Source of the DNA: Octopus vulgaris | Taxonomy: Eukaryota | Length of the DNA stretch: 64,000 nucleotides | Assembly (NCBI GenBank): GCA_951406725.2 | Contig: OX597814.1 | Location: 207,018,001 to 207,082,000 of the forward strand | Direction of reading: 5' to 3' | Part shown: one piece after another, positions 5,085 to 38,403 of the stretch | Numbering within the stretch: the first letter of the stretch is position 1 | Layout of the letters: every line of letters starts with the position of its first letter | The notes under the pieces: generated by a model | Database searches by the model: none | What the model saw: only the letters and a program-made list of their open reading frames with translations | What the model was told of the DNA's origin: nothing | Program-made: the position numbers and the translations under genes

Positions 5085-5756
5085 TTGTTGAAGAAAAGCA
5101 AGACTTAGTAGTTCAATAGCAGCGGAAGATGAAAGATATGTCTTGTCAAGAAAAAGCATTACATTCAAGAACTCTCTTCATCCACACACTTAACTAAAAC
5201 CTAAACTGCAAGGGTGAGGTTTAATGCTCCGGCCCATATGAAAGGATTATAAACATTAGGACTTTGACTATCAGTCTCTCCACTACCACAAGTGAAAGTC
5301 CTACGACAGAGTTTTCCTGGAATACTATGAAACTCTGTTGTTACTTTTCACATCATTTCCTCTCGCAGCTGAAATTGTGTCTCTTTCAGCATGGTTAGCA
5401 TGGTTTTTAATTTTGTGGAAGAGCCGAAAGTCACATGGTGCCAAGTCAGGAGTGTAGGAGGCCTGTCAAACAAATGGTGTGTTGTTCTTGACCAGGAGAT
5501 CTTGGATTTGACTCTCTTATTGCACTGACACTCCCCACATGCACAGATCATTCATTAAAATGGAATGCATTATTTTCACAGCTTCCACAAACCAGATGTG
5601 GAACTTGCTGACAGAAAGCTACTGCAACTTTTCCATACCAACCACTCTGATGAGCACAGTCTTAGATAATCACCTAATTACCCAATATCAGGTGCAAAAC
5701 AAATTTGTAAGAATGGTTGAAATAGATTTATAATACTGAATAGTTTATGCTTAATA

Positions 5757-6010
5757 TGCCCATTCCATGGTGGGGACACTGGCAACGGGTGGTGTCAGAG
5801 CTATGCCGTCGGGAACTTCGGTTCCTGGTAGTGCCACCCAAGGCGGATTGGTCTGACACCGAGTGGTATTAGGGACACAACCCGGCAGAGGGGGCTCTGG
5901 TAAAAATCCTCGGAGTGTATGCTTCAGTAACCGGCGGCTCCTCGGCCGTTCTGTCTCTGTGTCTGCGGACAATCTGCGGCAAACAAGATGTCTCCACATG
6001 TGGAATTGTT
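5757..6010 (+). mobile_element. Probable 5' UTR fragment of an RTE/Expander-like LINE
   Basis: GC-rich GAGCTATGCCGTCGGGAAC..GTTCCTGGTAGTGCCACCCAAGGCGG resembles RTE 5' ends as I recall them; copy at about 20632-20885. Confidence 0.4.
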
Positions 6011-6801
6011 GGGGACCGCTTGTGAAATCCACATATCCCCACGAAACTTCTTCGACACAAGAAGCCGACACAACCCACCCAGAGAGAATGTCGCCACAAG
6101 TGCAAGTAAGTAATATACCCACTCTGTTGAAAAATGTACGAGTGCGTGTTTTTCTGACTTACAGACTCACGGACTGTATCATTATCCTCATCCTCATTTA
6201 ATGTCCATCATTTATTCTGGCATGGGTTACACAGTTTGACAGGATCTGGTGACCACCAGATCTGTTTTAGGCTCCACGCTCAGCTTTGGCATGGTTTCTA
6301 TGGCTGACTGGCTGGCTGGTTGCCCTTCATATTGCCAACCATTTTACAGTGTGCTTTTCTCATGGCACCAGCACTGGTGAGGTCACCAAGTATCTTGCAA
6401 AACAAAGCAAAGAATGGAAAAGGATAAAAACCCCTAATGGAATTGGGGTGGGGAAATGCCTTGTTGCCTTGGGTAGAAATTCTAAAGTTTGCCAGAGGGT
6501 CAAACATAGTTGTCTGGATATAGGGGAGACTCATGGCCTCCTTATATTTATGCAAGGGTGCATGACAGTATCTGGAGGGGAGAAAGATGGTGGTAATAGG
6601 GTTCCAGAGCACACTTTCCATAACCTAGTGGTTTATGAAAGGATATTGATAGAATAAGTATCTGGCTTTAAAATATTAATGTATTGGGTTGATTCATTTG
6701 ACTAAAAATTCTTCAACGTGGTGCCCCAGCATGGCCACATTCGAATGACTGAAACAAGTAAAAGATACACACACACACTGATATTTGTCTATTTTTTTCA
6801 G

Positions 6802-6938
6802 ACACTGCATCATCGAAAGCATCCCTTCCTGGTTCACAACAGGAACCCTCTTCTGTGGTACACAGAACTAATGTGGCATCTGGAGAAAATGCTGGCATTA
6901 AAATAAACCTAATGATTGATTCAATTTCTAATGTATCT
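6802..6938 (+). CDS. Macro-PARP (PARP14/15-like) exon A1: linker and macrodomain start
   Basis: TTTTTTTCAG| acceptor, |GTGAGT donor; 137 nt, phase 1 to 0; TASSKASLPGSQQEPSSVVHRTNVASGENAGIKINLMIDSISNVS. Confidence 0.85.
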
Positions 6939-7258
6939 GTGAGTAAATAGATTCACGTAACTTATTTATATTTAATTGTTATTTCATTTTCAAATGAGGA
7001 ATCATTACAGTTAATTAAAACATTTAATCATTACAGTTAATTAAAACATTTAATTAAAACGTTTTCTCAATCTAACTCAAACATTTTATTTCCTTCACAT
7101 CTGATATCTTGAATATATCTTTTGCTAACTTTAACAACCTCAGACTTACTACAGCCATTCTGTAGAGCCTTTCTTAACAACAATATCAACTGCAACAATG
7201 TATCTCTCTTCTCTCCATGGAATGTTCCTTAGCTGTTTATTATTAATTACTTTTGTAG

Positions 7259-7486
7259 GTTGATGTCATCGTTAACAGCAGCAATGAAGAACTCCAGCTT
7301 GACAGTGGTGCTGTCTCCAAATCTATTCTCAATGCTGCTTGTCTAGAGATACAAGATGAATGTAACCAGAAATATCCTCGAGGTATTTCTACGTCTGAAA
7401 TTGCCATCACTAAAGGATATTGCCTCAAATGTAAGAATGTATTTCATCTGGCATTACCTGAGTGGGATGAAAATTCCTCTGATTCA
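7259..7486 (+). CDS. Macro-PARP exon B1 (macrodomain core)
   Basis: TTTTGTAG| and |GTAAGT; 228 nt; VDVIVNSSNEELQLDSGAVSKSILNAACLEIQDECNQKYPRGISTSEIAITKGYCLKCKNVFHLALPEWDENSSDS, a BAL/PARP14-type macro pattern. Confidence 0.92.
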
Positions 7487-7518
7487 GTAAGTATCAATCA
7501 TATTATATTGATTTATTG

Positions 7519-7733
7519 GAAGGCAGTGAGCTGGCAGATATGTTAGGATGCTGGGCGAAATGCTTAGCAATATTTCATCTGTCTTTACATTCTGAGTTCA
7601 AATTCCACCAATGTCGACTCTGCCTTTCATCCTTTTGGGTCAATAAATTAAGTACCAGTTGTGTATTGGGGTCAATCTAATCGACTGGACCCCTCCTACA
7701 AAATTTCAGGCCTTGTGCCTAAAGTAAAAAAGG
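7519..7733 (+). mobile_element. tRNA-derived SINE (Meta-like core) with 14-bp target-site duplication
   Basis: TSD ATATTGATTTATTG at 7505-7518 and 7734-7747; empty site in cassette 3 near 37823. Confidence 0.85.
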
Positions 7734-7837
7734 ATATTGATTTATTGAAACAGTTAATAATTGAGAAGAATCTTATGCATGTTCATTATTTATATTATTA
7801 CATTTGACGGATATTTGTCCTCATCTTGTTTGTTGTT

Positions 7838-7883
7838 AACACAACGTTTCAGCTGATATACCCTCCAGCCTTCATCAGGTGTC
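7838..7883 (-). ncRNA. Minimal type I hammerhead ribozyme motif
   Basis: GACAC-CTGATGA-AGGCTG..CAGCT-GAAA-CGTT-GTGTT on the minus strand. Confidence 0.65.
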
Positions 7884-8181
7884 TTGGGGAAATTTCAAAC
7901 CTGGGTTCTCATTCCTAAGGTATTTTTCGATGTTATTATTATTATTACTATTCAGGTCACTACCTGGAATCAAACTCGGAATAAAGGGGTTAGTAGCCCG
8001 CACTCTCTATCACCATGCCGTATGCCTACAGGCATACGGCATAGTGGTTAAAGTGTGGGCTACTAATCCCTAGATTCTGAGTTCAATTCTAGACAGTGAC
8101 CTGAATAATAATAATAATAATAGTAATAATAACATTGAAAAATACCTTAGGAATGAGAACCCAGCTTCGAAATTTCCCCAA

Positions 8182-8227
8182 GACACCTGATGAAGGCTGG
8201 AGGGTATATCAGTTGAAATGTTGTGTT
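8182..8227 (+). ncRNA. Minimal type I hammerhead ribozyme motif (decayed)
   Basis: GACAC-CTGATGA-AGGCTG..CAGTT-GAAA-TGTT-GTGTT. Confidence 0.5.
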
Positions 8228-8700
8228 AGCAACAAACAAGATGAGGACAAATATCTGTCAAATGTAAATAATGTACATAATTCCTCATCTCTTAAATATA
8301 GAACTGTATCAGTTATATGACTGATAAATAAGACTATATTAAAACATATTTCTGTGTTTTACTGTCTGTATTGGTGAGTTTTTCTCTGTCATGGCACGAG
8401 CACTAGAGAGGTTGTCATGTCCTCAACAACACTAAAGACTCCTCTTGGGTCTGCATTGTCTCTCTTCATTCACCAACCATTTCACACGGTGGATGGGGTC
8501 TGTTTTATTGTAGCAGCATCATGAGTGAGGTTGCCTTGTCCCTTGCAGGACTAAAGAGTGATAGGAATGACAGATGTGTTTAGAAGTGGTAGGAGTGAGA
8601 GGAGGATATATTTATTACAACTTAATGGTTTCTTCCTGTAATAAGAAAATAATTTAATAAAATGTTCATTAACAATTACTAAACAATTATATTTTATTAG

Positions 8701-8928
8701 ATTCTGGCAAACTTGACTCAAATAATGACCATTTGTCTGGAAGAAGCTGAGAGAATGGGTGCAAAAAGCCTGGCATTTCCTATATTAGGGGCTGAAATGA
8801 AATACCCCATTGAAAAACTACCCAGAACAATGTATGAAGCAGTGAAAAACTACTCGGATCAAAAATCAAGCCAGATCAAAGATGTTTACTTTGTGGTTTT
8901 ACCTGAAGAAGACACAGAAATAGTAAAG
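8701..8928 (+). CDS. Macro-PARP exon C1 (macrodomain C-terminal half)
   Basis: TTTTATTAG| and AAG|GTTGGT; 228 nt; ILANLTQIMTICLEEAERMGAKSLAFPILGAEMKYPIEKLPRTMYEAVKNYSDQKSSQIKDVYFVVLPEEDTEIVK. Confidence 0.92.
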
Positions 8929-9239
8929 GTTGGTTGATGGATTTGTTGTTTTATGTTGATATTTTTGGAATTCATCGAAAAAAATATTCTGCAACAAAGG
9001 AAGGAAATAGAAACAAAAATATAGTACTGTGCAAAAGTCTTTGGCCACTTTAAACAATTGTAAATTTCTAGTAATTGCCAACTTATAAGTGGATTTGTCA
9101 CATTGTGTTTGTTTACAGATGAAACATTGGCCCTGTTGGAGTTAATTCCATACTTAATCATTGTATTTTGTAGTAGAAGTTCCGAATGAGAGGGGAAGAT
9201 GTGATGAGGCTTTCTGACAAATTCTCACTTATATGTTGA

Positions 9240-9470
9240 CACGTTAAAAGCACCATTCGACCGTGGCCGTTGCCAGCCTCGCCTGGCATGTAAAAAGCAC
9301 CCACTACACTCACAGAGTGGTTGGCGTTAGGAAGGGCATCCAGCTGTAGAAACATTGCCAGATCAGACTGGGCCTGGTGCAGCTTTCTGGCTTCCCAGAC
9401 CCCAGTTGAACCGTCCAACCCATGCTAGCATGGAAAGCGGATGCTAAACGATGATGATGATGATGATGAT
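9240..9470 (+). mobile_element. 3' tail of an RTE-type LINE or derived SINE with (GAT)n end
   Basis: GGTTGGCGTTAGGAAGGGCATCCAGC..(GAT)n, same as the 3' end of the RTE at 48620-49980; copy at 24179-24409. Confidence 0.8.
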
Positions 9471-10269
9471 GAATGCCACCTTAGAAAAGAGCTCGTATTG
9501 GTCACAAAACTGGTCAGAGCAGAGACATTAAAGAGAAGGAGAGCAAATGAATCCTCACACGGGACTGCACTAAGACATTCACAAAATGCTGCTTACACAG
9601 CCAATGCGAGAGCCATGGAAGCGAGGGGCAGAGTAGTAGTTGCCTGATCAGAAATGCTGCATTAACAGCTTCATTACACACAAACCTGAGTCAGTCACAG
9701 CACATTATTCTTTGTAATAGGGATGCTACATCAACTGCAGCCACGTGAGCTGCAGAGAATGAAGAACAGCATGCCATTCGATAGTCTTTCTTTTTTATAT
9801 GTATTTTCATCAATTTCAAGTCATTATATACCCATATGTTTCAAATTTTCAAAGAAAAACCAGTAATTTTCTCTGTCTTTGCAGTTGTGACATATTTCAA
9901 AAATATTTTGTACATTTTTGTGAATTTTGGTACATTTTGGTATGGAATTTTATACATTTTCCAAAAAAGCTTTGGCAGCCCAAGTTGTTAGACTAGAAAA
10001 TAAGTGTTCTTAGAATGACGAAGCATTCAAACCCTTTGCAACCCCAAGTACCTCTGCTTGTAGTAATTATAATTAGCAGTACAAAACGAGGATTAGATGT
10101 ATGCCAGGCTGGACAAACAAGAGTTGATTATCTGAACATTTTCTTTTACTTACTTCCACTTCATGAGGCAAGGATTGATGAGTTAAGAAATGGAAGAATG
10201 GTAACCCTTAACGCTCTCGAGCCATTGTACAGGACACACTGAGAGAAACAAAAGCCCATAAAACAATAG

Positions 10270-11000
10270 GAGTTAAAAGTCATCGATAAGAATGAATGAT
10301 GCAACATCAAATGGAAAAGTGTCTACATCCAGTTTAGGACACAAACAAACTTGTGTTGCAAGAGGGAAGAGATATGGCACCGTTGAGGTGAAATTTTTCT
10401 GACAGGAGAAGGCAAGGAAGCACTTCACTTTGAACCTAAAAAATGAAACCTGCTTCTGTTACCCATATACTTGGGTTAGAGAGTGGTGAAAATAAAAACT
10501 ACAGACATACCACCAGAAATAAACATCTGCTGGTTGGTGGCAGTTGTCCTTCTGGACATTGAGGGTCACACAAACATCGTACGTGTGTGGAAAGTTGGGC
10601 AAGACTTAGAGTTGTGGGTGCAAATAGATTACAAAACTTAATAAACAATTCTGGACATCATAAATTTACCACATGACACCAAACTCCAGATACCCTTTGA
10701 AGGTAGAAATCTGATGTGTCACCTATGTGGGGACACAAATCATCTAAAGGTTTTCTGCCCACAACAAATGAGAGAAGGAGACCCTCACTTCTGCCAACAC
10801 CATCACCACTACCACCACAACCACAACAGCAGATGCAAGTGACTACTATGGATATAAAAGCAACTGCAACAGGAATCACAGCAACACTGACAACAAGAAC
10901 AACAGCAACAAACAGAACAGAGAACTCACAAACGTCTACGGCTTTAATATGCCAGGGAGTAGCAAAAGCAACAGCATCAGAATTTGCCAAAACATGAACT
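10270..11000 (+). mobile_element. Degenerate gag/ORF1-like retroelement fragment with CCHC zinc knuckle
   Basis: CHLCGDTNHLKVFC (CX2CX4HX4C) at 10717-10758; copy at about 25210-25940. Confidence 0.5.
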
Positions 11001-11689
11001 TTATTCTTAGCAAAAAAAACAAAAATCTCCTCTAAACATGTCCATTCCATGTTTGTATTTGTCTGATAGGTACCGACTGGATTTATTGAAAGTGCCAGTA
11101 TGGATTTTGGATGAATCGCATCAGGTCATTCAGATCGCATCTTGACAGGATGTTCTGTAGGTCAGTAGATAAGGATAGTGTAAGTTGTCCACTTTTAAAA
11201 ATCATTGGCTACATCGACCACGAATGTATGATTTCTACAGTTGACCTAGATAGGCTTAAGAAGGCAGGAACTCAGCTACTGGGAGCTGAATGTGTCACTG
11301 TTGGCATGTCAGGCTTACAGAGACTGGATTAAAGAATTAGTTAAGCATCGACAGGGGCAATCATCGACAACACATGGTAGCTTGCACTGAAAAGACCAGT
11401 TAGAGTAAAATCAATTGCCAGTAAAGATTAGTGTTAAAAAGAAATAAAATAGAAGGGAAATTAGAAACTTAGAAAAGGCAATTAGAAAATGCATCATAAC
11501 TGACATACTGGCTGTGAGATTGGCCCCTGGGTCACTTCTTCAATGCTAAACACAAAAGTTGCATTGTCAGAGCTAAAATGCTTGCACTGAGACAAGTCAG
11601 AATGAAAATCATCCAATGGACCTCAGTGGCAGAGCTCCAATACTAGCAACAAAGCCACAATTTGGTTTTTGGTGGACCAAAATGGGTAC

Positions 11690-12356
11690 ATGGTATTCGA
11701 ACCCAAGCAGAGGTGTGTGGCATTTCAACAGCACTTCACCCAACAGTTTGGAATGAATGGCAGTCCAGAACGCAGGATGAATTTCAGTGCTTACCTTGCA
11801 GACATACCATAACTCTTGGTAAGTGGGGCATAGCCTTACAAAATGTTGATAACAGCTGCAGAAATATAGGATGTGATAATGGGTTGCATAGGTGGGGGAG
11901 GTGCAAATTGCTTGATTTGGATGGTCTGCTCTATGGTCTTTACTTTATATGCCACACTTATTTGGTGGTCTTTCAGCAGATATCTACCATGACTGGCTGA
12001 AGAATAGGAGAATTTCCAATTCTGTGAGTCGAAGAACGGTGACACTGCTAATAAAGGGCCCAAACAAGGATTCTTCATGACTACATTGCATCCCATCAAG
12101 CTCTCCCCCTACCCTATTTACCAGATTTAGCACCTGTTGACTTCCATCTATTCCCCAAATGAAGAGGCAATCAAAGGTTGCTATTTTAATACCATTGTCA
12201 TGATTCAGAGGAAACTGTTGAAAGTCCTCGATCTGCTGTGCAGTTTATTGCTGTGCAAGGTAACTATTTCAAAGAAAATGATTTTTAAAACATAGGCAAA
12301 TAAGTTATTTTTTATTGAACATGATTAGTCCGGAAAGTTTTTGATAGCACTTTGTA
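11690..12356 (+). mobile_element. Mariner transposon remnant
   Basis: Decayed xPYxPDLAPxDFHLFP motif at about 12105-12155 and a mariner-like TIR ending in TA at 12326-12356; 5' boundary uncertain; copy at about 26630-27297. Confidence 0.65.
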
Positions 12357-12879
12357 AACCAATATTGAAATAGAAGAAACATTTAAGACATGGAAATGCA
12401 TATTAGTTTTTGAATAGAGTCTACTTTCATAGAAGCACATTGCCATCTTGTGATGTCTTTAAAGAGGGACTTTAGTTCATGAAACTGGTGAAGAATATGG
12501 AAAAAATGATGGAGAGAGAAATAATCATTCTACTGTTTTTCTGAAACGATTGAATGAAGGAAACCAAGGTAGACGGTGCCTGTGAGTTGTCTAGGTTGAT
12601 TGTGTATTGGGGAGGCTTATTTCATTTTCTGCCTACCAGACCTACTCACAGAGCTTTGTTTGGCCTAAGGCTGTAGTTAAAGAGACTTTCCGAAGGTACC
12701 ATACATTGAGACAACTTAAATTAAGGCAATTAAAAGTAATAGCAACAGAAGCAGTATTAATACCAAAAGGCAATCTTTATATCCAACTAAATGTGAATGT
12801 TGTGTTAGAATACCAAATACTGCCTTATTTACCTTGAGAGGACCTCTCATATGGACACACAGTCCATAAAATTTTTTCC

Positions 12880-14110
12880 ATACAATTTAATATTTTTGGC
12901 ACTTGTATTCTTTTCCTCTCACTTGTATGCTTAGGTTCAATCACCTGCTGTGGTGTTGGTACTTGGAACGTATCATACAACCATTCCATTGACTCCTCCA
13001 ACTTCTTTGGTTCACTTTCCATGAATCTCTTTTTCAGAAGGTTCCTGTGTCTCTTTTGTATGCCTTTTCTACTTTTTACCCAATACATTATTTTTACCTA
13101 TTCATTTGGTAATTACGCCATCTTCCCAACTCTGCTTTCCATTCTTGTATGCCCTCATATACACCTTTTCACCAACTTTAAAGAGTCTTGCTATGTCTTC
13201 CCTGGCACGTTTTGTTTTCTTGCCAGGGAGCAATTTATCAAAGACTAACTTAACTTTCCTTGCAAACATCAGCTCCACTGGTGAGCTACTGGCTGGTGTA
13301 TTTGGATTTGGCGTCACACAGTACACTCTTAAAAATTGTTGTAGAGCTACCTCATTTGTAACTTCCTTATTCAACTTTCTTTGGGTTCTGTTGAAGGTGA
13401 TGACAAAGCGTTTTGCACTGTACTTTATATGTTCTACCGTGAATGTTTCACAAATTTTTTATAATCCACTAGACACAAAATGCATTCCATTGTTAGACAT
13501 TGTCTTGTCTGGGTGTAAAAAATATATCACAGTTGAGGGGGTTGGTTTTTTTTACATTTTACAGTTTCAGGCCATCTTGAGAAGCTATCAACTACCACTA
13601 AGTAGTAAGAACCATTTAAAGGACCAGCAAAATCGGCGTGCAGTCTTCACCATAGACCAATGTTTAGTTTTTATTGTTGGCAATTTTTTGTTTCATTTTG
13701 GCTTACATACCAGTGTTCCACTCTGTTTTACTGCATCAAACCTTTGACTGATCCAACTATATTTCCACACAAAGCACTTATGGGTGTATTCCATACTTTG
13801 AATAATTCCATCCACCCTGTGCCGAATAAATTAACTGAACTTTTTAACACAAATTTTGCCTTTTTTGTTTGCCTTTTTCATTTGACCTTGAAATGTTACA
13901 TTACATACAAATTCACAGAAAAAATATAATCTTTTTCCTGTTACACCATGTACTGCCTTTTTTGATTTAATTAATTTCAGCTTACCAACATATTTCCACG
14001 GTTTTTCATTTATAATGGTGATATCACTGACCATGTCCAACTGCATTTTAACTGATTTTCACCTTCATGAATTTCCTCATTGTTATATTGCCAATTTCTT
14101 CTGATGGCAT
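12880..14110 (-). mobile_element. Internally deleted Gypsy remnant (protease and integrase pieces)
   Basis: MQLDMVSDITIINE (decayed protease LDTG-like motif) and ALQQFLRVYCVTPNPNTP..SPVELMFARK (integrase C-terminus). Confidence 0.75.
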
Positions 14111-14179
14111 ACTATTTATTCTTTCTCCTTTGCTGTACCATTTTGTCATCTGCATTCTACAGTGCTTCTTTATTTGTCC

Positions 14180-16850
14180 TACTCTGTTGGACATGCACAC
14201 TGACACTGGCATGGAAGCATACTGGCTTCATTTCTTTCTACTCTACACATGTCTTCGGCTATCACAGCCCATGTTTCAATGCCATGTAGTGTAATTGTTC
14301 ACACACAAGCATTATGCAATCTGCCTTTCACTCTGAGGGAGATGCCCTTTGTTGTCAGTAGAGGTAGAAACTCTCTGAACTTTGCCCAGCGTAATCTTTT
14401 TCTCACAGCTATGCTCTTGGAGTATCCATCTTCGCTACTAACTTGGTCACCCAGGTAACAGAAGCTATCTACTACCTCTGGTATACCCCTAGTTGATGGA
14501 GCCTAAATTCTGCACACTTTCAGCGTTTATTGTACCTGTATATCTTCCACACACAAAAGCTATTTTTCCCTGTTAACCTTCCTCTGGCATTGCTGCATCT
14601 TTTATATTTCCAAAGCTTACACCAGGTCCATCTTATGGAATTTCTGCCCATGCCTTTTTTAAAGATCAAATAAGGCGATCTACCTGAAGGGATTTGTGAT
14701 TTGTTTGCCTTCCTACTTACTAGGACTTTGGTTTTTGCTAGATCAACTCTAAATCTCTTCAATTCTAAACCTTGCTTCCATACCTGAACCTTCTTTAGTT
14801 CTTGTAGTGATTCTACTATGAGAGCATAGAAGAGCTCCCAGGGAAGCCTGTCTAGAATTCCTCCGTTAATACCTGGAGGACTATGATGAACAAGCGGGGT
14901 TGAGCACCCTGAATTATTCACTGTACTCGTTACCAACCCTCACCTTACTGATAACATCCCTGTACAGGGCTTGTACAACTCTTACCAACCATTCATCTAT
15001 CCCTAGTTTCCGCATTGACCACCAGATAACGGATCAGAGAATTCTGTCAAAAGTTTTCTCCATGTCAACAAAAAGCCAGGTACAGAGGTTTATCTTTGGC
15101 TATATATTTCTCCTGCAACTGTCTTACCAGAAATATAGCATCAGTGGTGCTTCTGCCTGGCACAAAACCAAACTGCACTTCATCTAAACTAATTCCCTCC
15201 CTAAGTAGTTGGGCTACGGCCCTTTCCATGACTCATCCCCTGATCCAACTATTTGATACCTCTGTAATTATTTCTATCTAAATCATCACCTTTACCCTTG
15301 TAGCTGTTGACTATGGTGCTGCTACACCAGTCATTGAGTATGATTCCTTCATGAACTACCTGATTTACAATATGTGTGACTCAACTATAACCCACACCAC
15401 CAGATATTTTAAGCATCTCAGCAGTGATTACTGATGGGGTGGGGGCTTTCCCTGTCATCAAACCCTTAATTGCTTTATCCATCAAGGTACTGTCAATTTG
15501 GATAGACTCCCCTCCTCCCATTCATTCTCCACATTCAGCAGTCTTTCATAATAGCATTTCCATGCCTCTTTCTTTGCAGAATCATTAAACTCAAGTGCAC
15601 CATCATCGATGCACATACATTTCTCTCCTATAACATCACAATTTTATCTCACTCACTGTCTTACAATCTGAAACACATCAGTTCTTTGGTCCTCACATCA
15701 CTGAACAGAGGCAAACTTCTTTTCTGCTTCTCCCTTGGCTAGATATACCTGTCTCCTAGCTTTCTAGCTTCCCTTCAGGCAATTTAAACAGTTTCCTGCT
15801 ATCCCCACTCCTCCAGGTCTTCCAGGCCTGTTTCTTTGCTTTAATGGCCCTGTCTACTGCATCGTTCCACCACTATGTTACCCTAAGTCTGGAAGGGACT
15901 TTGCACCAGCTGCAGATTTGGTCTGTGGCACTCAGCAAGCTGTCTCACAGGAATTCCTAGTTGCCCTGTATGTCACAAGTCTGTAGCTCCTCCTCCTCCC
16001 TCTCATCAGATTTCTCAGTTTGGATGTCCCTAAATCTCTGACCATATGAGGGGTCCTTAAGCTTCCAAATTCTTCTTATCCAGATTGGTCTGCTTCTTGG
16101 CATCCTTCTGGCCTGGAGTCTAAAGACATTATTGATTAGTCTATGCTGGGGGGTACATTCTTCACCAGGGAAAGTCTTTGCATTTAAGAGCAACCATACA
16201 TCCCACTGTCTGGTCAGGATGTAATCAATCTGGTTAGCAGAAACACCTGACTGATAGGTTATCAGGTGGCTGATTGGCTTCCTGAAGTTGGTGTTGCAAG
16301 TCAGTTGGTTATTTGCATCACAGAACTTCAGTAGCCTTTTTCCATTTTCATTTCAGGAACCCATTCTATGGTTCCCATGTACACCATGGAAATTATTGGG
16401 CAGCCATCTGGCATGCCCATTTGAATCCCCCAGCCATGAAGTCGAGATCTTTGTCACTCATCTTTGAAGTAGGCTGCAGAAGAATATCACAAAAGTGGTC
16501 TATCTGAACATTTGGTAGGCCCACTTGTGGGATGTAGGCAAATATAATTGTAGCCATACAATTCTGTAAGACTAGCCTGAACTTAAGTATTCTATCACAT
16601 ATTCTAACTACCTCTATGACCTTATTCACCCATTTATTATCTAGAAGTATGCCCACCTCACTTGCCCCATCACTATTACCTTCCCAGAAGATTTTATACC
16701 CTTGCGTCTTGCCTGTGAGGAATCTGACTGATGCTCCTTTCCACCTTACCCCTTGAATGCAACATATCTCAACATGCCTCCTTTCAAGTATCTCTACAAT
16801 CTAGTTAGACCTACTTTTCAGTGTGTCTACATTGTGGGTGCCAACTCTAA
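14180..16850 (-). mobile_element. Degenerate RTE-clade LINE (APE + RT)
   Basis: APE segment GILLDNKWVNKVIEVVRICDRIL (16393-16656), QHRL motif, and RT/C-terminal pieces homologous to ORF 49319-50011. Confidence 0.85.
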
Positions 16851-17617
16851 AATTCGCACAGCTAAAACTTTTGTGTGTTTGTTAACTCCTCTTCAAGTTT
16901 CTATTAACCCCACATGAATTGGTTTATCCTGTTATAATTCTTAAAATGTTGAATTGTTTTAATGCCTATTTTGGGATACAGTATATTTAGTAAAACTAAT
17001 TAAGACACAACTATCTCTGACCACCTACCGTGTACTCTGGTACTTCACGTACTTCTCTTTACTTACAGTGACTAGGTTATTCCATTGGTCACATGGGAAG
17101 GGTATACCATTATTACTAATTCCCAACAACACTTGTACTCTGGTTTTGTTACTGAAATGTTTTTGGACATATGAGATGCAAGAAAAATAACCTCAACTTC
17201 AACATTCTTGATAGACATTTCAACAGAAAACACAAGACTCAGCAGTTTTAATCAGAATGGTGAGTGGAGAGAAGAAACAATACAACTTCAGCTACATGAA
17301 GACACCATTGCCACATGTTTAACTTCACTAACATCACATCAGTGGCCATGTAAAGTGTGGGAGTTTTTTCTGCTGCATTCACTATAATACCATATTGACA
17401 TAGGTTTCATGTCTCTCAGAAGACAGGCAGGCCATACACAGAATAGCTTTGATCTGAATGACAAAGTAATTTTCCCCTCTTGTCTGTTTCTGATTAGAAA
17501 TGAACCATTAAATATTTCAAATATTTTGTCATGCTTTTGTTATATTAAATCTCTTCTATTTGCAAAAATGAAAAAATTAAGCATAAAAATAATTCTGATT
17601 GTTTTTTGTTTTAACAG

Positions 17618-17663
17618 AAATTTCGTGAATATCTCTTAAAAACTGAAAAATTTCATTCAAAAG
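17618..17663 (+). CDS. Macro-PARP exon D1 (terminal helix of macrodomain)
   Basis: TTTTAACAG| and AAAG|GTAAAT; 46 nt, phase 0 to 1; KFREYLLKTEKFHSK + G, joining exon A2 as GAC. Confidence 0.8.
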
Positions 17664-18225
17664 GTAAATAATTTGTTCATTAATATTGAATATTATTATG
17701 ACCTCTATACCTGTGGGGTGTGCCCTGGCACCTGGCCTTCCACCATTTATTTCTCTCTTCCTTACTTTACCATCCCATCTAGGCCATGGTCCCTATCCTT
17801 TGCGAGGATACCCTGGCACCTCTCTTCCACTCCCACTCTCCCTCTCTCCCTTTGCTTTCCCTCTGGTAGGGTAACCACGTATCTCCCTCCTTCTGTCCTC
17901 TCTCTCCGTCCCTCTCTCTCACATTGGGTAACCGTGTATCTCCTCTTCAGCAATAAAATATACGAAGCCCAGTATACCCACCATGACTACCCGTCTGATA
18001 AGGGTACACCAGGCACATGCATATGTACACGACATGGTGATCTCATATCAAGATAAACAGCACATGACATTGCAGCTGGGGCCCAGTTAGAATTTTCTTC
18101 AGGTTGAGTAACCCATCCCGATCAAAAGGTCTCTGAATAAGGGTTGTTTAAGGATGTTGAACGATCCACCCATGTTTCCAAAGGTGAATTATCCAAACCT
18201 CCAAGAATTCCTTTCAACACACGGC

Positions 18226-19770: not shown

Positions 19771-21647
19771 TTGTTGAAGAAAAGCAAGACTTAGTAGTTC
19801 AATAGCAGCGGAAGACGAAAGATATGTCTTGTCAAGAAAAAGCATTACATTCAAGAACTCTCTTCATCCACACACTTAACTAAAACCTAAACTGCAAGGG
19901 TGAGGTTTAATGCTCAGGCCCATATGAAAGGATTATAAACATTAGGACTTTGACTATCAGTCTCTCCACTACCACAAGTGAAAGTCCACGACAGAGTTGA
20001 GCTACTTTAACCATATGAATATAAACGTAAACAAGATGTGTTCAGAAGATGTCTGACCTTTAGACATACAGAAAACCCCTTTGTACGTTTCACAAATTTT
20101 ATTTAATCACCTTCAAAATATCCCCAGTGGGAGTTCACAATTTTCTCCCAGACCTTCTGTTGCTACTGGCAACACTTCTGGAGTGCCTTTCCTGGAATAC
20201 TATGAAACTCTGTTGTTACTTTTCACATCATTTCCTCTCGCAGCTGAAATTGTGTCTCTTTCAGCATGGTTAGCATGGTTTTTAATTTTGTGGAAGAGCC
20301 GAAAGTCACGTGGTGCCAAGTCAGGAGTGTAGGAGGCCTGTCAAACAAATGGTGTGTTGTTCTTGACCAGGAGATCTTGGATTTGACTCTCTTATTGCAC
20401 TGACACTCCCCACATGCACAGATCATTCATTAAAATGGAATGCATTATTTTCACAGCTTCCACAAACCAGATGTGGAACTTGCTGACAGAAAGCTACTGC
20501 AACTTTTCCATACCAACCACTCTGATGAGCACAGTCTTAGATAATCACCTAATTACCCAATATCAGGTGCAAAACAAATTTGTAAGAATGGTTGAAATAG
20601 ATTTATAATACTGAATAGTTTACGCTTAATATGTCCCCTCCGTGGTGGGGACACTGGCAACGGGTAGGTGTCAGAGCTATGCCGTCGGGAACTTCGGTTC
20701 CTGGTAGTGCCACCCAAGGCGGATTGGTCTGACACCGAGTGGTATTAGGGACACAACCCGGCAGACGGGGCTCTGGTAAAAATCCTCGGAGTGTATGCTT
20801 CAGTAACTGGCGGCTCCTCGGTCGTTCTGTCTCTGTGTCTGCGTACAATCTGTGGCAAACAAGATGTCTCCACATGTGGGATTGTTGGTGACCGCTTGTG
20901 AAATCCACATATCCCCACGAAACTTCTTCCATGAGTAGAAGAAGCCGACACAACCCACCCAGAGAGAATGTTGCCACAAGTACAAGTAAGTAATATACCC
21001 ACACTGTTGAAAAATGTACGAGTGCGTGTTTTTCTGACTTACAGACTCACGGACTGTATCATTATCCTCATCCTCATTTAATGTCCATCATTTATTCTGG
21101 CATGGGTTACACAGTTTGACATGATCTGATGACCACCAGATCTGTTTTAGGCTCCAAGCTCAGCTTTGGCATGGTTTCTATGGCTGGCTGGCTGGCTGGC
21201 TGGTTGCCCTTCATATTGCCAACCATTTTACAGTGTGCTTTTCTCATGGCACCAGCACTGGTGAGGTCACCAAGTATCTTGCAAAACAAAGCAAAGAATG
21301 GAAAAGGATAAAAACCCCCAATGGAATTGGGGTGGGGAAATGCCTTGATGCCTTGGGTAGAAATTCTAAAGTTTGCCAGAGGGTCAAACATAGTTGTCTG
21401 GATATAGGGGAGACTCATGGCCTCCTCATATTTATGCAAGGGTGCATGACAGTATCTGGAGGGAGAAAGATGGTGGTAATAGGGTTCCAGAGCACACTTT
21501 CCATAACCTAGTGGTTTATGAAAGGATGTTGATAGAATAAGTATCTGGCTTTAAAATATTAATGTATTGGGTTGATTCATTTGACTAAAAATTCTTCAAC
21601 GTGGTGCCCCAGCATGGCCACATTCAAATGACTGAAACAAGTAAAAA

Positions 21648-21683
<36 letters not shown>

Positions 21684-21704
21684 ATATTTGTCTATTTTTT
21701 TCAG

Positions 21705-21841
21705 ACACTGCATCATCGAAAGCATCCCTTCCTGGTTCACAACAGGAACCCTCTTCTGTGGTACACAGAACTAATGTGGCATCTGGAGAAAATGCTGGCA
21801 TTAAAATAAACCTAATGATTGATTCAATTTCTAATGTATCT
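21705..21841 (+). CDS. Macro-PARP exon A2
   Basis: Identical to A1 by eye; AG/GT sites intact. Confidence 0.85.
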
Positions 21842-22161
21842 GTGAGTAAATAGATTCACGTAACTTATTTATATTTAATTGTTATTTCATTTTCAAATGA
21901 GGAATCATTACAGTTAATTAAAACATTTAATCATTACAGTTAATTAAAACATTTAATTAAAACGTTTTCTCAATCTAACTCAAACATTTTATTTCCTTCA
22001 CATCTGATATCTTGAATATATCTTTTGCTAACTTTAACAACCTCAGACTTACTACAGCCATTCTGTAGAGCCTTTCTTAACAACAATATCAACTGCAACA
22101 ATGTATCTCTCTTCTCTCCATGGAATGTTCCTTAGCTGTTTATTATTAATTACTTTTGTAG

Positions 22162-22389
22162 GTTGATGTCATCGTTAACAGCAGCAATGAAGAACTCCAG
22201 CTTGACAGTGGTGCTGTCTCCAAATCTATTCTCAATGCTGCTTGTCTAGAGATACAAGATGAATGTAACCAGAAATATCCTCGAGGTATTTCTACGTCTG
22301 AAATTGCCATCACTAAAGGATATTGCCTCAAATGTAAGAATGTATTTCATCTGGCATTACGTTCCTGGGATAAAAATTCCTCTGATTCA
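22162..22389 (+). CDS. Macro-PARP exon B2
   Basis: As B1 except HLALRSWDKN instead of HLALPEWDEN; AG/GT intact. Confidence 0.92.
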
Positions 22390-22421
22390 GTAAGTATCAA
22401 TCATATTATATTGATTTATTG

Positions 22422-22636
22422 GAAGGCGGTGAGCTGGCAGATATGTTAGGATGCTGGGCGAAATGCTTAGCAATATTTCATCTGTCTTTACATTCTGAGT
22501 TCAAATTCCACCAATGTCGACTCTGCCTTTCATCCTTTTGGGTCAATAAATTAAGTACCAGTTGTGTATTGGGGTCAATCTAATCGACTGGACCCCTCCT
22601 ACAAAATTTCAGGCCTTGTGCCTAAAGTAAAAAAGG
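22422..22636 (+). mobile_element. tRNA-derived SINE (duplicate of 7519-7733)
   Basis: Same sequence and TSD. Confidence 0.8.
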
Positions 22637-22695
22637 ATATTGATTTATTGAAACAGTTAATAATTGAGAAGAACCTTATGCATGTCCATTATTTA

Positions 22696-23002
22696 TATTA
22701 TTACATTTGACGGATATTTGTCCTCATCTTATTTGTTGTTAACACAACGTTTCAGCTGATATACCCTCCAGCCTTCATCAGGTGTCTTGGGGAAATTTCA
22801 AACCTGGGTTCTCATTCCTAAAGTATTTTTCGAAGTTATTATTATTATTACTATTCAGGTCACTACCTGGAATCAAACTCGGAATAAAGGGGTTAGTAGC
22901 CCGCACTCTCTATCACCATGCCGTATGCCTACAGGCATACGGCATAGTGGTTAAAGTGTGGGCTGCTAATCCCTAGATTCTGAGTTCAATTCGAGACAGT
23001 GA

Positions 23003-23063
<61 letters not shown>

Positions 23064-23245
23064 AATAATAACATTGAAAAATACCTTAGGAATGAGAACC
23101 CAGCTTCGAAATTTCCCCAAGACACCTGATGAAGGCTGGAGGGTATATCAGTTGAAACGTTGTGTTAGCAACAAACAAGATGAGGACAAATATCTGTCAT
23201 ATGTAAATAATGTACATAATTCCTCATCTCTTAAATATAGAACTG
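22696..23245. mobile_element. Palindromic tRNA-head/hammerhead element (duplicate copy)
   Basis: Centre 22931-22932; hammerhead motifs at 22741-22786 (-) and 23121-23166 (+). Confidence 0.85.
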
Positions 23246-23639
23246 TATCAGTTATATGACTGATAAATAAGACTATATTAAAACATATTTCTCTGTTTTA
23301 CTCTCTGTATTGGTGAGTTTTTCTCTGTCATGGCACGAGCACTAGAGAGGTTGTCATGTCCTCAACAACACTAAAGACTCCTCTTGGGTCTGCATTGTCT
23401 CTCTTCATTCACCAACCATTTCACACGGTGGATGGGGTCTGTTTTATTGTAGCAGCATCATGAGTGAGGTTGCCTTGTCCCTTGCAGGACTAAAGAGTGA
23501 TAGGAATGACAGATGTGTTTAGAAGTGGTAGGAGTGAGAGGAGGATATATTTATTACAACTTAATGGTTTCTTCCTGTAATAAGAAAATAATTTAATAAA
23601 ATGTTCATTAACAATTACTAAACAATTATATTTTATTAG

Positions 23640-23867
23640 ATTCTGGCAAACTTGACTCAAATAATGACCATTTGTCTGGAAGAAGCTGAGAGAATGGGTG
23701 CAAAAAGCCTGGCATTTCCTATATTAGGGGCTGAAATGAAATACCCCATTGAAAAACTACCCAGAACAATGTATGAAGCAGTGAAAAACTACTCGGATCA
23801 AAAATCAAGCCAGATCAAAGATGTTTGCTTTGTGGTTTTACCTGAAGAAGACACAGAAATAGTAAAG
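23640..23867 (+). CDS. Macro-PARP exon C2
   Basis: As C1 with one Y>C change; AG/GT intact. Confidence 0.92.
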
Positions 23868-26800
23868 GTTGGTTGATGGATTTGTTGTTTTATGTTGATA
23901 TTTTTGGAATTCATCGAAAAAAATATTCTGCAACAAAGGAAGGAAATAGAAACAAAAATATAGTACTGTGCAAAAGTCTTTGGCCACTTTAAACAATTGT
24001 AAATTTCTAGTAATTGCCAACTTATAAGTGGATTTGTCACATTGTGTTTGTTTACAGATGAAACATTGGCCCTGTTGGAGTTAATTCCATACTTAATCAT
24101 TGTATTTTGTAGTAGAAGTTCCGAATGAGAGGGGAAGATGTGATGAGGCTTTCTGACAAATTCTCACTGATATGTTGGCACGTTAAAAGCACCATTCGAT
24201 CGTGGCCGTTGCCAGCCTCGCCTGGCACGTAAAAAGCACCCACTACACTCACAGAGTGGTTGGCGTTAGGAAGGGCATCCAGCTGTAGAAACATTGCCAG
24301 ATCAGACTGGGCCTGGTGCAGCTTTCTGGCTTCCCAGACCCCAGTTGAACCGTCCAACCCATGCTAGCATGGAAAGCGGATGCTAAACGATGATGATGAT
24401 GATGATGATGAATGCCACCTTAGAAAAGAGCTCGTATTGGTCACAAAACTGGTCAGAGCAGAGACATTAAAGAGAAGGAGAGCAAATGAATCCTCACACG
24501 GGACTGCACTAAGACATTCACAAAATGCTGCCTACACAGCCAATGCGAGAGCCATGGAAGCGAGGGGCAGAGTAGTAGTTGCCTGATCAGAAATGCTGCA
24601 TTAACAGCTTCATTACACACAAACCTGAGTCAGTCACAGCACATTATTCTTTGTAATAGGGATGCTACATCAACTGCAGCCACGTGAGCTGCAGAGAATG
24701 AAGAACAGCATGCCATTCGATAGTCTTTCTTTTTTATATGTATTTTCATCAATTTCAAGTCATTATATACCCATATGTTTCAAATTTCCAAAGAAAAACC
24801 AGTATTTTTCTCTGTCTTTGCAGTTGTGACATATTTCAAAAATATTTTGTACATTTTTGTGAATTTTGGTACATTTTGGTATGGAATTCTATACATTTTT
24901 CAAAAAAACTTTGGCAGCCCAAGTTGTTAGACTAGAAAATAAGTGTTCTTAGAATGACGAAGCATTCAAACCCTTTGAAAACCCAAGTACCTCTGCTTGT
25001 AGTAATTATAATTAGCAGTACAAAACGAGGATTAGATGTATGCCAGGTTGGACAAACAAGAGTTGATTATCTGAACATTTTCTTTTACTTACTTCCACTT
25101 CATGAGGCAAGGATTGATGAGTTAAGAAATGGAAGAATGGTAACCCTTAACGCTCTCGAGCCATTGTACAGGACACACTGAGAGAAACAAAAGCCCATAA
25201 AACAATAGGAGTTAAAAGTCATCGATAAGAATGAATGATGCAACATCAAATGGAAAAGTGTCTACATCCAGTTTAGGACACAAACAAACTTGTGTTGCAA
25301 GAGGGAAGAGATATGGCACCGTAGAGGTGAAATTTTTCTGACAGGAGAAGGCAAGGAAGCACTTCACTTTGAACCTAAAAAATGAAACCTGCTTCTGTTA
25401 CCCATATACTTGGGTTAGAGAGTGGTGAAAATAAAAACTACAGACATACCACCAGAAATAAACATTTGCTGGTTGGTGGCAGTTGTCCTTCTGGACATTG
25501 AGGGTCACACAAACATCGTACGTGTGTGGAAAGTTGGGCAAGACTTAGAGTTGTGGGTGCAAATAGATTACAAAACTTAATAAACAATTCTGGACATCAT
25601 AAATTTACCACATGACACCAAACTCCAGATACCCTTCGAAGGTAGAAATCTGATGTGTCACCTATGTGGGGACACAAATCATCTAAAGGTTTTCTGCCCA
25701 CAACAAATGAGAGAAGGGAGACCCTCACTTCTGCCAACACCATCACCACTACCACCACAACCACAACAGCAGATGCAAGTGACTACTATGGATATAAAAG
25801 CAACTGCAACAGGAATCACAGCAACACTGACAACAAGAACAACAGCAACAAACAGAACAGAGAACTCACAAACGTCTACGGCTTTAATATGCCAGGGAGT
25901 AGCAAAAGCAACAGCATCAGAATTTGCCAAAACATGAACTTTATTCTTAGCAAAAAAAACAAAAATCTCCTCTAAACATGTCCATTCCATGTTTGTATTT
26001 GTCTGATAGGTACCGACTGGATTTATTGAAAGTGCCAGTATGGATTTTGGATGAATCGCATCAGGTCATTCAGATCGCATCTTGACAGGATGTTCTGTAG
26101 GTCAGTAGATAAGGATAGTGTAAGTTGTCCACTTTTAAAAATCATTGGCTACATCGACCACGTATGTATGATTTCTACAGTTGACCTAGATAGGCTTAAG
26201 AAGGCAGGAACTCGGCTACTGGGAGCTGAATGTGTCACTGTTGGCATGTCAGGCTTACAGAGACTGGATTAAAGAATTAGTTAAGCATCGACAGGGGCAA
26301 TCATCGACAACACATGGTAGCTTGCACTGAAAAGACCAGTTAGAGTAAAATCAATTGCCAGTAAAGATTAGTGTTAGAAAGAAATAAAATAGAAGGGAAA
26401 TTAGAAACTTAGAAAAGGCAATTAGAAAATGCATCATAACTGACATACTGGCTGTGAGATTGGCCCCTGGGTCACTTCTTCAATGCTAAACACAAAAGTT
26501 GCATTGTCAGAGCTAAAATGCTTGCACTGAGACAAGTCAGAATGAAAATCATCCAATGGACCTCAGTGGCAGAGCTCCAATACTAGCAACAAAGCCACAA
26601 TTTGGTTTTTGGTGGACCAAAATGGGTACATGGTATTCGAACCCAAGCAGAGGTGTGTGGCATTTCAACAGCACTTCACCCAACAGTTTGGAATGAATGG
26701 CAGTCCAGAACGCAGGATGAATTTCAGTGCTTACCTTGCAGACATACCATAACTCTTGGTAAGTGGGGCATAGCCTTACAAAATGTTGATAACAGCTGCA

Positions 26801-27819
26801 GAAATATGGGATGTGATAATGGGTTGCATAGGTGGGGGAGGTGCAAATTGCTTGATTTGGATGGTCTGCTCTATGGTCTTTACTTTATATGCCACACTTA
26901 TTTGGTGGTCTTTCAGCAGATATCTACCATGACTGGCTGAAGAATAGGAGAATTTCCAATTCTGTGAGTCGAAGAACGGTGACACTGCTAATAAAGGGCC
27001 CAAACAAGGATTCTTCATGACTACATTGCATCCCATCAAGCTCTCCCCCCTACCCTATTTACCAGATTTAGCACCTGTTGACTTCCATCTATTCCCCAAA
27101 TGAAGAGGCAATCAAAGGTTGCTATTTTAATACCATTGTCATGATTCAGAGGAAACTGTTGAAAGTCCTCGATCTGCTGTGCAGTTTATTGCTGTGCAAG
27201 GTAACTATTTCAAAGAAAATGATTTTTAAAACATAGGCAAATAAGTTATTTTTTATTGAACATGATTAGTCCGGAAAGTTTTTGATAGCACTTTGTAAAC
27301 CAATATTGAAATAGAAGAAACATTTAAGACATGGAAATGCATATTAGTTTTTGAATAGAGTCTACTTTCATAGAAGCACATTGCCATCTTGTGATGTCTT
27401 TAAAGAGGGACTTTAGTTCATGAAACTGGTGAAGAATATGGAAAAAATGATGGAGAGAGAAATAATCATTCTACTGTTTTTCTGAAACGATTGAATGAAG
27501 GAAACCAAGGTAGACGGTGCCTGTGAGTTGTCTAGGTTGATTGTGTATTGGGGAGGCTTATTTCATTTTCTGCCTACCAGACCTACTCACAGAGCTTTGT
27601 TTGGCCTAAGGCTGTAGTTAAAGAGACTTTCCGAAGGTACCATACATTGAGACAACTTAAATTAAGGCAATTAAAAGTAATAGCAACAGAAGTAGTATTA
27701 ATACCAAAAGGCAATCTTTATATCCAACTAAATGTGAATGTTGTGTTAGAATACCAAATACTGCCTTATTTACCTTGAGAGGACCTCTCATATGGACACA
27801 CAGTCCATAAAATTTTTTC

Positions 27820-29065
27820 CATACAATTTAATATTTTTGGCACTTGTATTCTTTTCCTCTCACTTGTATGCTTAGGTTCAATCACCTGCTGTGGTGTTGG
27901 TACTTGGAACGTATCATACAACCATTCCATTGACTCCTCCAACTTCTTTGGTTCACTTTCCACGAATCTCTTTTTCAGAAGGTTCCTGTGTCTCTTTTGT
28001 ATGCCTTTTCTACTTTTTACCCAATACATTATTTTTACCTATTCATTTGGTAATTACGCCATCTTCCCAACTCTGCTTTCCATTCTTGTATGCCCTCATA
28101 TACACCTTTTCACCAACTTTAAAGAGTCTTGCTATGTCTTCCCTGGCACGTTTTGTTTTCTTGCCAGGGAGCAATTTATCAAAGACTAACTTAACTTTCC
28201 TTGCAAACATCAGCTCCACTGGTGAGCTACTGGCTGGTGTATTTGGATTTGGTGTCACACAGTACACTCTTAAAAATTGTTGTAGAGCTACCTCATTTGT
28301 AACTTCCTTATTCAACTTTCTTTGGGTTCTGTTGAAGGTGATGACAAAGCGTTTTGCACTGTACTTTATATGTTCTACCGTGAATGTTTCACAAATTTTT
28401 TATAATCCACTAGACACAAAATGCATTCCATTGTTAGACATTGTCTTGTCTGGGTGTAAAAAATATATCACAGTTGAGGGGGTTGGTTTTTTTTTACATT
28501 TTACAGTTTCAGGCCATCTTGAGAAGCTATCAACTACCACTAAGTAGTAAGAACCATTTAAAGAACCAGCAAAATCGGCGTGCAGTCTTCACCATAGACC
28601 AATGTTTAGTTTTTATTGTCGGCAATTTTTTGTTTCATTTTGGCTTACATACCAGTGTTCCACTCTGTTTTACTGCAGTTTTTTGTTTCAGTCCCTCAGC
28701 CACATTCAAACCTTTGACTGATCCAACTATATTTCCACACAAAGCACTTATGGGTGTATTCCATACTTTGAATAATTCCATCCACCCTGTGCCGAATAAA
28801 TTAACTGAACTTTTTAACACAAATTTTGCCTTTTTCATTTGACCTTGAAATGTTACATTACATACAAATTCACAGAAAAAATATAATCTTTTTCCTGTTA
28901 CACCATGTACTGCCTTTTTTGATTTAATTAATTTCAGCTTACCAACATATTTCCACGGTTTTTCATTTATAATGGTGATATCACTGACCATGTCCAACTG
29001 CATTTTAACTGATTTTCACCTTCATGAATTTCCTCATTGTTATATTGCCAATTTCTTCTGATGGC
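27820..29065 (-). mobile_element. Gypsy remnant (duplicate of 12880-14110)
   Basis: ORFs 28043-28315 and 28635-29003. Confidence 0.75.
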
Positions 29066-29136
29066 ATACTATTTATTCTTTCTCCTTTGCTGTACCATTT
29101 TGTCATCTGCATTCTACAGTGCTTCTTTATTTGTCC

Positions 29137-32576: not shown

Positions 32577-32622
32577 AAATTTCGTGAATATCTCTTAAAA
32601 ACTGAAAAATTTCATTCAAAAG
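32577..32622 (+). CDS. Macro-PARP exon D2
   Basis: Identical to D1; AG/GT intact. Confidence 0.8.
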
Positions 32623-37105: not shown

Positions 37106-37158
37106 ATATGTATACATAACATACAACATACACCTTGATATTTGTTTATTTTTTTCAG

Positions 37159-37804: not shown

Positions 37805-38403
37805 GTAAGTATCAATCATATGATATTGATTTATTGAAACAGTTAATGTTTGAAGAGAACCTTATGCATGTTGTGTGAGAATCATAAAGCAAATGTCAGC
37901 ATCCTGTTTAATATTTGTTCTTCCAAGTTATCGTTGGAAGGAAGCAGAAGATATCGATGAACAGGACACTTTTATATATAAATAGAAGGAAAAAAGCCTC
38001 ATGGCCTAACAACAGTTATGTGACTGATAAATAAGACTATATTAAAACATATTTCTCTGTTTTACTCTCTGTATTGGTGAGTTTTTCTCTGTCATGGCAT
38101 GAGCACTAGAGAGGTTGTCATGTCCTCAACAACACTAAAGACTCCTCTTGGGTCTGCATTCTCTCTCTTCCTTCACCAATCATTTTACACGGTGGATGGG
38201 GGTCTGACTTATTGTAGCAGCAACATGAGTGAGGTTGCCTTGTCCCTTGCAGGACTAAAGAGTGATAGGAATGACAGTTGTGTTTAGAAGTGGTAGGTGT
38301 GAGAGGAGGATATATTTATTACAACTTAATGGTTTCTTCCTGTAATAAGAAAATAATTTAATAAAATGTTCATTATCAATTACTAAACAATTATTTTTTT
38401 TAG

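Follow-up and report, generated by a model that had tools for sequence, protein, structure and literature searches.

The intronic insertion near the start of the 64,000-nt stretch of Octopus vulgaris DNA analysed here (the window) raises the question of what kind of element would join a tRNA-like promoter to a hammerhead ribozyme and lay down two such units head to head. The original prediction answered with a non-coding hybrid of SINE and retrozyme, possibly mobilized by Penelope. Our results leave almost no doubt that the insertion is a pair of Penelope pseudo-LTRs (pLTRs), and each arm is the pLTR of an autonomous Penelope/Poseidon-type element. The reading that we favor is that of head-to-head Penelope/Poseidon ends whose tRNA-derived head is probably the polymerase III promoter of the element RNA. 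The copy at hand is a decayed intronic passenger of an ordinary kind, and the interest lies in the promoter of the family and not in this single locus.

Two element ends in a host intron

The insertion spans positions 7783..8309, where it replaces ~141 bp of intron, and consists of two 5'-truncated Penelope-like element ends set head to head. The element that had been predicted at 7793..8306 is there, with its left end at 7783 and its right end at 8309. The right arm (8024..8309, forward strand) is a pLTR that runs from the putative RNA start, a G at -6 when the first nucleotide of the head is taken as +1, through the tail, and the left arm (7783..8027, reverse strand) is an inverted pLTR without the tail. 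The two meet at a center of symmetry at 8023..8034, a 5-bp stem with a 2-nt loop at -7..+5 that may have served as the site of fold-back priming. That the arms are truly inverted is clear from two stretches, one of 155 nt that is 94% complementary and one of 71 nt (85%), and the fold of 7783-8309 has 227 predicted pairs, in keeping with the long double-stranded RNA that had been envisaged.

Read outward, each arm presents the predicted order of A box, B box, (AAT)n and minimal type I hammerhead, the last in the sequence GACAC-CTGATGA-stem II-GAAA-short stem III-GTGTT. On the forward strand of the right arm, the tRNA-derived head (8030..8104, best match tRNA-Arg(TCG), stems partly broken) contains an A box at 8037..8047 with two changes from the family consensus and a B box at 8080..8090, and it is followed by an (AAT)n microsatellite (8105..8133) that varies in length between copies. 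Further along are the first ATG of the element frame (8153..8155), which opens an 835-codon ORF in full-length tandem copies, a hammerhead (8182..8227) with decayed stems II and III and a predicted cut after 8222 (GUU), and the Penelope 'tail' (8276..8309), which corresponds to the first ~30 nt of the element body and is present in the right arm only. The left arm carries, on the reverse strand, a degraded A box (8010..8020), a B box (7966..7976) and a hammerhead (7838..7883). Its palindromic stem III is intact, as predicted for both arms; that of the right arm no longer is. The first pair of hammerhead stem II is G.U, not G-C, in both arms. A T-to-C change at the first A-box position is also common to both (8020, 8037) and recurs in a few other loci, which fits either one shared template for the two arms or a minor subfamily.

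The site is intronic, as RNA reads, from a related organism or from paralogues, are spliced at 6938-7259 and across 7487-8700. The host exon 5' of the intron (7259..7486, forward strand), delimited by splice joints, encodes a macrodomain (Pfam Macro, E 1.4e-9), and the 3' exon lies at 8701..8937 on the same strand. The macrodomain-gene cassette is duplicated in tandem (5313-17952 versus 20188-32897, 98% identity), and there is an older, third, partial copy (6762-9013 versus 37118-38725). Where the element sits in the other cassettes, cassette 3 has 140-141 bp of sequence (37872..38012) that is missing from cassettes 1 and 2, which bears out the claim of a discrete insertion replacing ~140 bp. 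At this locus, to which the comparison with the empty site of cassette 3 was confined, no target-site duplication was seen. The same insertion, with a longer AAT run, is found in cassette 2 (22686..23248) and at two paralogous loci elsewhere in the genome, and it is therefore older than those duplications. A second, unrelated, high-copy SINE-like insertion lies in the same intron at 7500-7733 and is likewise missing from cassette 3.

The parent element and its copies

A search with the ORF end followed by upstream walking yielded a monomer consensus of 2,661 nt with a single 851-codon open frame, which opens immediately behind the head and reads through the hammerhead; counted from its first ATG, which lies in the pLTR, it has 835 codons. 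N-terminal peptides of four related proteins (P0007, P0087, P0101 and P0029) also match a hammerhead read in frame. The family ORF has an RVT_1 domain (Pfam, E 5.6e-10), and its protein has 81 longer homologues and shares 40% identity with an Anolis protein of 836 aa, the N-terminus of which agrees with the PAc layout as published. A Pfam match to GIY-YIG was obtained for one of 13 aligned relatives only and not for the family's own fragment; we take the family to encode this endonuclease on the strength of homology over 97-100% of the C-terminal fragment and an endonuclease motif. With the endonuclease part assigned by homology, the family thus appears to have the single ORF with RT and, at the C-terminus, a GIY-YIG endonuclease that characterizes Penelope/Poseidon elements, and a further trait of this group, given in a passage of PMC8557442, was recognized by eye in the translation of the 851-codon frame.

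In long copies, the head lies ~30 nt 3' of the stop codon of the RT-endonuclease ORF. Thirty loci were selected by the ORF end, and by hand count, 27 of these have head sequence directly behind it or, after deletions, pLTR sequence within ~250 nt. Full-length copies are partial tandems of the form pLTR-tail-ORF-pLTR, and 8 of 30 long copies run from the body into the upstream pLTR. The tail, which was to be compared with Penelope pLTRs of the same genome, proved to be the start of the element body, and the 3' ends of copies cluster near +250 and +280. The suspected Penelope link holds, in that the arms equal the terminal repeat of an element with an RT-endonuclease ORF. No second Penelope family was encountered in the same genome, as 30 of 30 loci belong to this one, and there were no relatives among 29 candidate viral contigs. 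The copies are old, with a median identity to the consensus of 93% and a best of 95% over 85 alignments, and no intact ORF was seen among the genomic loci examined. In the 2.8-Gb assembly, a 32-nt stretch of the hammerhead has 3,609 exact matches and is kept in 15 of 107 arms not selected by it, which puts this dispersed repeat at roughly 26,000 arms. Other repeats often interrupt the (AAT)n of the pLTR (as in L032, L035, L052 and L057), and by gapped local alignment, 19 of 84 arms have their 5' end within it; it may be a target for AT-preferring endonucleases, the element's own included.

The notion of an independent non-coding SINE or retrozyme, built of a tRNA head and a Penelope tail, mobilized in trans and having the palindrome as its unit, has to be weighed against this background. 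Most copies are indeed head-to-tail units of 250-290 nt, SINE-like elements of Schistosoma join a Pol III promoter to a hammerhead (passages of PMC6765202), and animal retrozymes are described as pLTR-derived in the available part of a preprint (bioRxiv 10.64898/2026.07.22.740005). The autonomous element, however, has the same head behind its stop codon, and nothing diagnostic separates the 58 short arms from the 39 long ones, which differ at p<0.01 at 1 of 224 positions, a CpG site with the same majority base in both. With a single consensus for short and long copies, a SINE master of its own is lacking. Nor were head-to-tail arrays seen in 83 mapped loci (the first matches to the hammerhead pattern listed on contig 1), in which arms are single or inverted, and inverted arms are joined at many other truncation points at many other loci, which argues against the palindrome as the mobile unit. 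This proposal is thus largely refuted, and we regard it as highly improbable.

The hammerhead core and stems I and II are present in the family by sequence, in a layout like that of the minimal hammerheads of Penelope-like elements (PLEs), which have a short helix I, an unpaired base before helix II and a palindromic helix III (passages of PMC4209133), so that the minimal type I hammerhead that had been proposed appears to be a sound assignment and the ribozyme probably not different in itself from those of other PLEs. The same layout was found in 9 of 80 comparator loci, 2 of these with a GUU site. The 46-nt hammerhead monomers are predicted to fold no more stably than shuffled sequences (z -0.4 and -1.1). 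Rfam gave no match to a hammerhead or a tRNA in the window or in nine loci, and the window likewise contains no tRNA by ARAGORN; decayed heads and minimal hammerheads fall short of what these models recognize. The hammerhead of PAc is reported, in the part of PMC11167929 consulted, to cleave only with protein. Pairs of minimal hammerheads on opposite strands 100-700 bp apart have been ascribed to truncated PLEs (PMC4209133, same passages), and a portion of PMC8557442 reports for Penelope that copies form partial tandems, carry a tail on one side and include an inverted truncated copy. The palindromic layout, the one-sided tail and the minimal hammerhead are hence features already known for Penelope.

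The tRNA-derived head and the start of the element RNA

The usual products of polymerase III are short non-coding RNAs, its promoters are a mark of non-coding SINEs, and where a Penelope promoter has been mapped it is of polymerase II type. The unusual part of this coding element is the tRNA-derived head with its A and B boxes just after the stop codon. The head, which is 73 nt long and forms the first part of the pLTR, agrees with a tRNA-Arg(TCG) gene from this genome at ~49 of its 73 positions (z 11.5), with the isotype Arg provisional given a tRNA set of 40 calls and only 10 labels. The family consensus fits the SINE promoter motifs given in part of PMC8969392 at 11 of 11 positions for the A box (TGGCNNAGTGG) and, 33 nt further on, at 10 of 11 for the B box (GGTTCGANNCC), so that the tRNA-like head of the original prediction is well founded. 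In the consensus, the boxes are intact and the tRNA stems partly broken. The tRNA likeness score of the family head is 21, against a maximum of 13 for shuffled sequences; eight comparator spacers upstream of a hammerhead scored 9-12, within their shuffles, and a regular expression for the two boxes matched behind none of 37 comparator ORFs (7 with <150 nt of flank). A free-standing SINE was considered as donor of the head and found to be unsupported, since only 1 of 30 loci picked by the head had no Penelope sequence nearby. In the consensus, the stretch immediately upstream of the head can in part pair with it (-18..+17), which may be the trace of an old fold-back that joined head and element. 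No description of a tRNA-headed pLTR was found in open-access text; Repbase, Dfam, subscription papers and supplements, which lay outside the search, may hold one.

If the head acts as a promoter, then copies that run to the end of the RNA should stop near it, and the 5' ends of genomic copies do so. Ends were placed by ungapped extension in loci of the hammerhead-pattern sample (83) or the head-pattern sample; gapped local alignment over-extended into the flanks. For 100 arms with an alignable head, 42 ends fall at -8..-1 with the mode at -7/-6, 2 at -9..-29, 16 at +1..+5 (8 of them at +1) and 29 at +6..+20, and the remaining 11 arms are long and continue into the ORF. When one arm per locus was counted in the hammerhead sample, 21 of the 31 loci reaching -1 stopped within 8 nt, 1 stopped in the next 21 nt and 9 went on into the ORF; this count left out 28 of the 83 loci, in which no head core was aligned, and the long class becomes 12-13 if the three long copies among these are included. 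Run-off at the 5' end of an RNA would be expected to leave a sharp upstream edge with shorter ends trailing behind it. There are 25 arms that end at -8..-5, and 15 of them go on into the reverse complement of the head, with the same junction as in the window. As the T at -7 is also supplied by such a fold-back, G-6, which lies 13 nt ahead of the A box, is the likely start. Three chimeric copies (L361, L362 and L392) have a head-started unit joined to a body fragment at -6, -5 and -2, respectively, consistent with template switching at the RNA start. Among six copies with head, tail and body in one piece, three begin at -8, -2 and +4, and the other three run through from an upstream ORF; RNAs starting further upstream, multimers or circles must therefore also have served as templates. 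No start peak was seen at the head in RNA-seq data (three raw runs of a related label and two contig sets), where reads are about equal on both strands, and an excess of A>G/T>C in these reads is not taken as editing, being expected from CpG decay in the reference copy.

The second line of evidence concerns termination. Polymerase III stops at runs of at least four T (T4). The sense strand of the consensus has no TTTT in 2,661 nt, for which the probability is 0.0056 by base shuffle, 0.030 by synonymous codon shuffle and 0.0016 under a third-base null. The comparators, taken from 80 loci in metagenome contigs, 43 of which were left out as having no intact 300-codon frame, are distant from the family (28-46% identity) and do not include its relatives at 51-67%; these 37 intact Penelope ORFs contain 161 T4 runs versus 160.6 expected (6.9 expected at the family's length), and all 10 ORFs >1,700 nt (two of them near-duplicates) have 3-14 each. 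Phe codons favor TTC over TTT by 14:6, and other two-fold codons end in T in 54% of cases (P 0.027). Ten decayed genomic copies have 0-4 T4 each at scattered places. The test rests on a consensus of copies ~5% diverged, and the intact frame means that building the consensus did not shorten any T runs within the ORF. Part of the gap may reflect general composition; GGGG is also missing, where codon shuffling gives an expectation of ~1, and there are few TTT (13 versus 18-22).

Two other explanations of these data deserve consideration. The start at -6 could belong to an internal promoter of polymerase II type, with the head a captured relic lying over that promoter or turned into it. Passages of PMC2377424 describe the promoter of Drosophila virilis Penelope as LINE-like, internal to the pLTR and TATA-less, with a downstream promoter element, and such a promoter would account for the edge of 5' ends equally well and supply a capped mRNA. 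It leaves unexplained, however, why A and B boxes are intact at canonical spacing amid broken tRNA stems, why the A box begins 13 nt after the start (10-15 nt in SINEs according to part of PMC8969392) and why there is no T4 over 2,661 nt, and we hold it to be unlikely. It is quite unlikely, in our view, that the head is no promoter at all and that the template was host read-through RNA, with the pile-up of ends produced by nucleolytic processing of the tRNA-like part or by RT stalling and fold-back at the hairpin around the head and the T4 gap due to chance. A 14-bp hairpin of -13.4 kcal/mol, the third most stable of the 44-nt windows scanned, does span -18..+17 and may add to the pile-up, 29 of the 100 arms do end at +6..+20 and 8 at +1, copies that read through the head exist, and G4 is missing as well as T4. 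Stalling, however, predicts ends at the 3' foot of the stem, whereas the mode at -7/-6 lies beyond the loop and just 2 of the 100 arms end in the next 21 nt upstream. In addition, the comparator ORFs are not T4-poor, and there is no pile-up at the strongest hairpin elsewhere in the element (449-492), around which 3 of 21 long copies stop in 56 nt versus 10 of 18 in the next 160 nt. Transcription by polymerase III from about -6 seems to us probable, with indirect support from the 5' ends and the lack of T4.

A possible life cycle and its bearing on related repeats

How far such a transcript would reach, and what would become of it, can be laid out with decreasing confidence. In the partial tandem, a layout that is itself observed, the first pLTR places a head upstream of the ORF. 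The start of polymerase III would lie near G-6, with the A box 13 nt further on, and given a sense strand free of T4, the enzyme could read the whole 2.66-kb unit; the odds that it supplied the full-length template are about even. It is a more tentative suggestion that this full-length RNA was translated as well, and equally so that the family represents an autonomous coding retrotransposon running on polymerase III, one that captured a tRNA promoter, purged T4, had its uncapped RNA both copied and translated and shed SINE-like stubs.

In PAc, reverse transcription is primed internally at two sites just inside the ORF (part of PMC11167929). By analogy, the RT-endonuclease would nick AT-rich DNA and prime internally at the pLTR/ORF junction, with two priming sites giving ends with or without the tail. 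An RNA from -6 of the upstream pLTR would contain two such junctions, one 250-290 nt into the transcript and one at the opposite end. The first of these, when primed, would yield a cDNA of 250-290 nt that runs off at the RNA start, giving rise to the abundant SINE-like copies, and priming at the later junction would yield copies continuing into the ORF. The free cDNA end could then fold back on the 5-bp stem at -7..+5 and be extended into a palindrome, with the loss of ~141 bp of target at this locus. For PAc, the same part of PMC11167929 describes a requirement for the ORF's first 172 nt in the RNA and none for hammerhead cleavage. If this ORF requirement holds for the family, solo stubs without the needed sequence would be dead ends, which fits the absence of a separate subfamily.

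Measured against known systems, as far as the sources consulted in part describe them, the family shares with Anolis PAc (PMC11167929) and D. virilis Penelope (PMC2377424) the single ORF with RT and C-terminal endonuclease, the partial-tandem pLTR, an optional tail of 30-40 bp, an ORF start upstream of the hammerhead cut site and a promoter expected in the pLTR, and with Penelope (PMC8557442) the inverted 5'-truncated copies at the 5' end. It differs from PAc and D. virilis Penelope in a pLTR that starts with a tRNA-derived A/B-box head and (AAT)n and in a sense strand without T4; the term 'tRNA' has no match in the text searched of PMC2377424 and PMC4209133. The Sm-alpha and Sj-alpha SINE-like elements of Schistosoma likewise have a polymerase III promoter followed by a hammerhead, and an upstream copy drives the downstream one, but they are non-coding tandem repeats, whereas promoter and hammerhead here are the terminal repeat of a protein-coding element (passages of PMC6765202). 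Animal non-LTR retrozymes (PMC7229834; bioRxiv 10.64898/2026.07.22.740005, both in excerpt) are also short pLTR-related units with a type I hammerhead, but they are defined as tandem arrays, whereas copies of this family lie scattered, singly or as inverted arms, and correspond to the end of the autonomous element itself; neither 'tRNA' nor 'Pol III' occurs in the searched part of the preprint. TRNA-derived SINEs, as characterized in part of PMC8969392, resemble the family in canonical A/B spacing, in an A box 10-15 nt from the 5' end and in its many copies of 250-290 nt, unlike which it has no separate master, no target-site duplication at 7783-8309 and Penelope rather than LINE machinery. 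Penelope and tRNA SINEs both appear in passages of a cephalopod repeat survey (PMC8967140), which draw no link between them, and a term search of the available text of a bivalve SINE paper (PMC11481361) found no mention of Penelope.

If the polymerase III reading is true, a coding retroelement can adopt the polymerase III route for its full-length RNA, and the question arises of how an uncapped RNA gets translated. In other systems, self-cleavage can induce cap-independent translation (PMC13725137). The family also suggests a possible route from Penelope pLTRs to repeats that combine promoter and hammerhead, and a coding element run by polymerase III, if real, would be a direct intermediate between Penelope elements and repeats of the Sm-alpha type. 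More generally, genomic 5' ends offer a means of locating where the RNA of an extinct element began, and tens of thousands of arms, many of them inverted and some intronic, are a potential source of double-stranded RNA. The window contains two other inverted repeat pairs, at 41377-42249 (192 bp, 97%) and 51917-53028 (379 bp, 91%), as well as decayed ORF fragments of LINE type at 1720-2706, 14520-16800, 47506-48225 and 49319-50077. On its forward strand, an open frame of 543 codons (59936-61567), which has hydrophobic stretches and matches nothing in Pfam, is overlapped by a frame of 217 codons (61512-62165), and the two are possibly one intronless membrane-protein gene with a frameshift.
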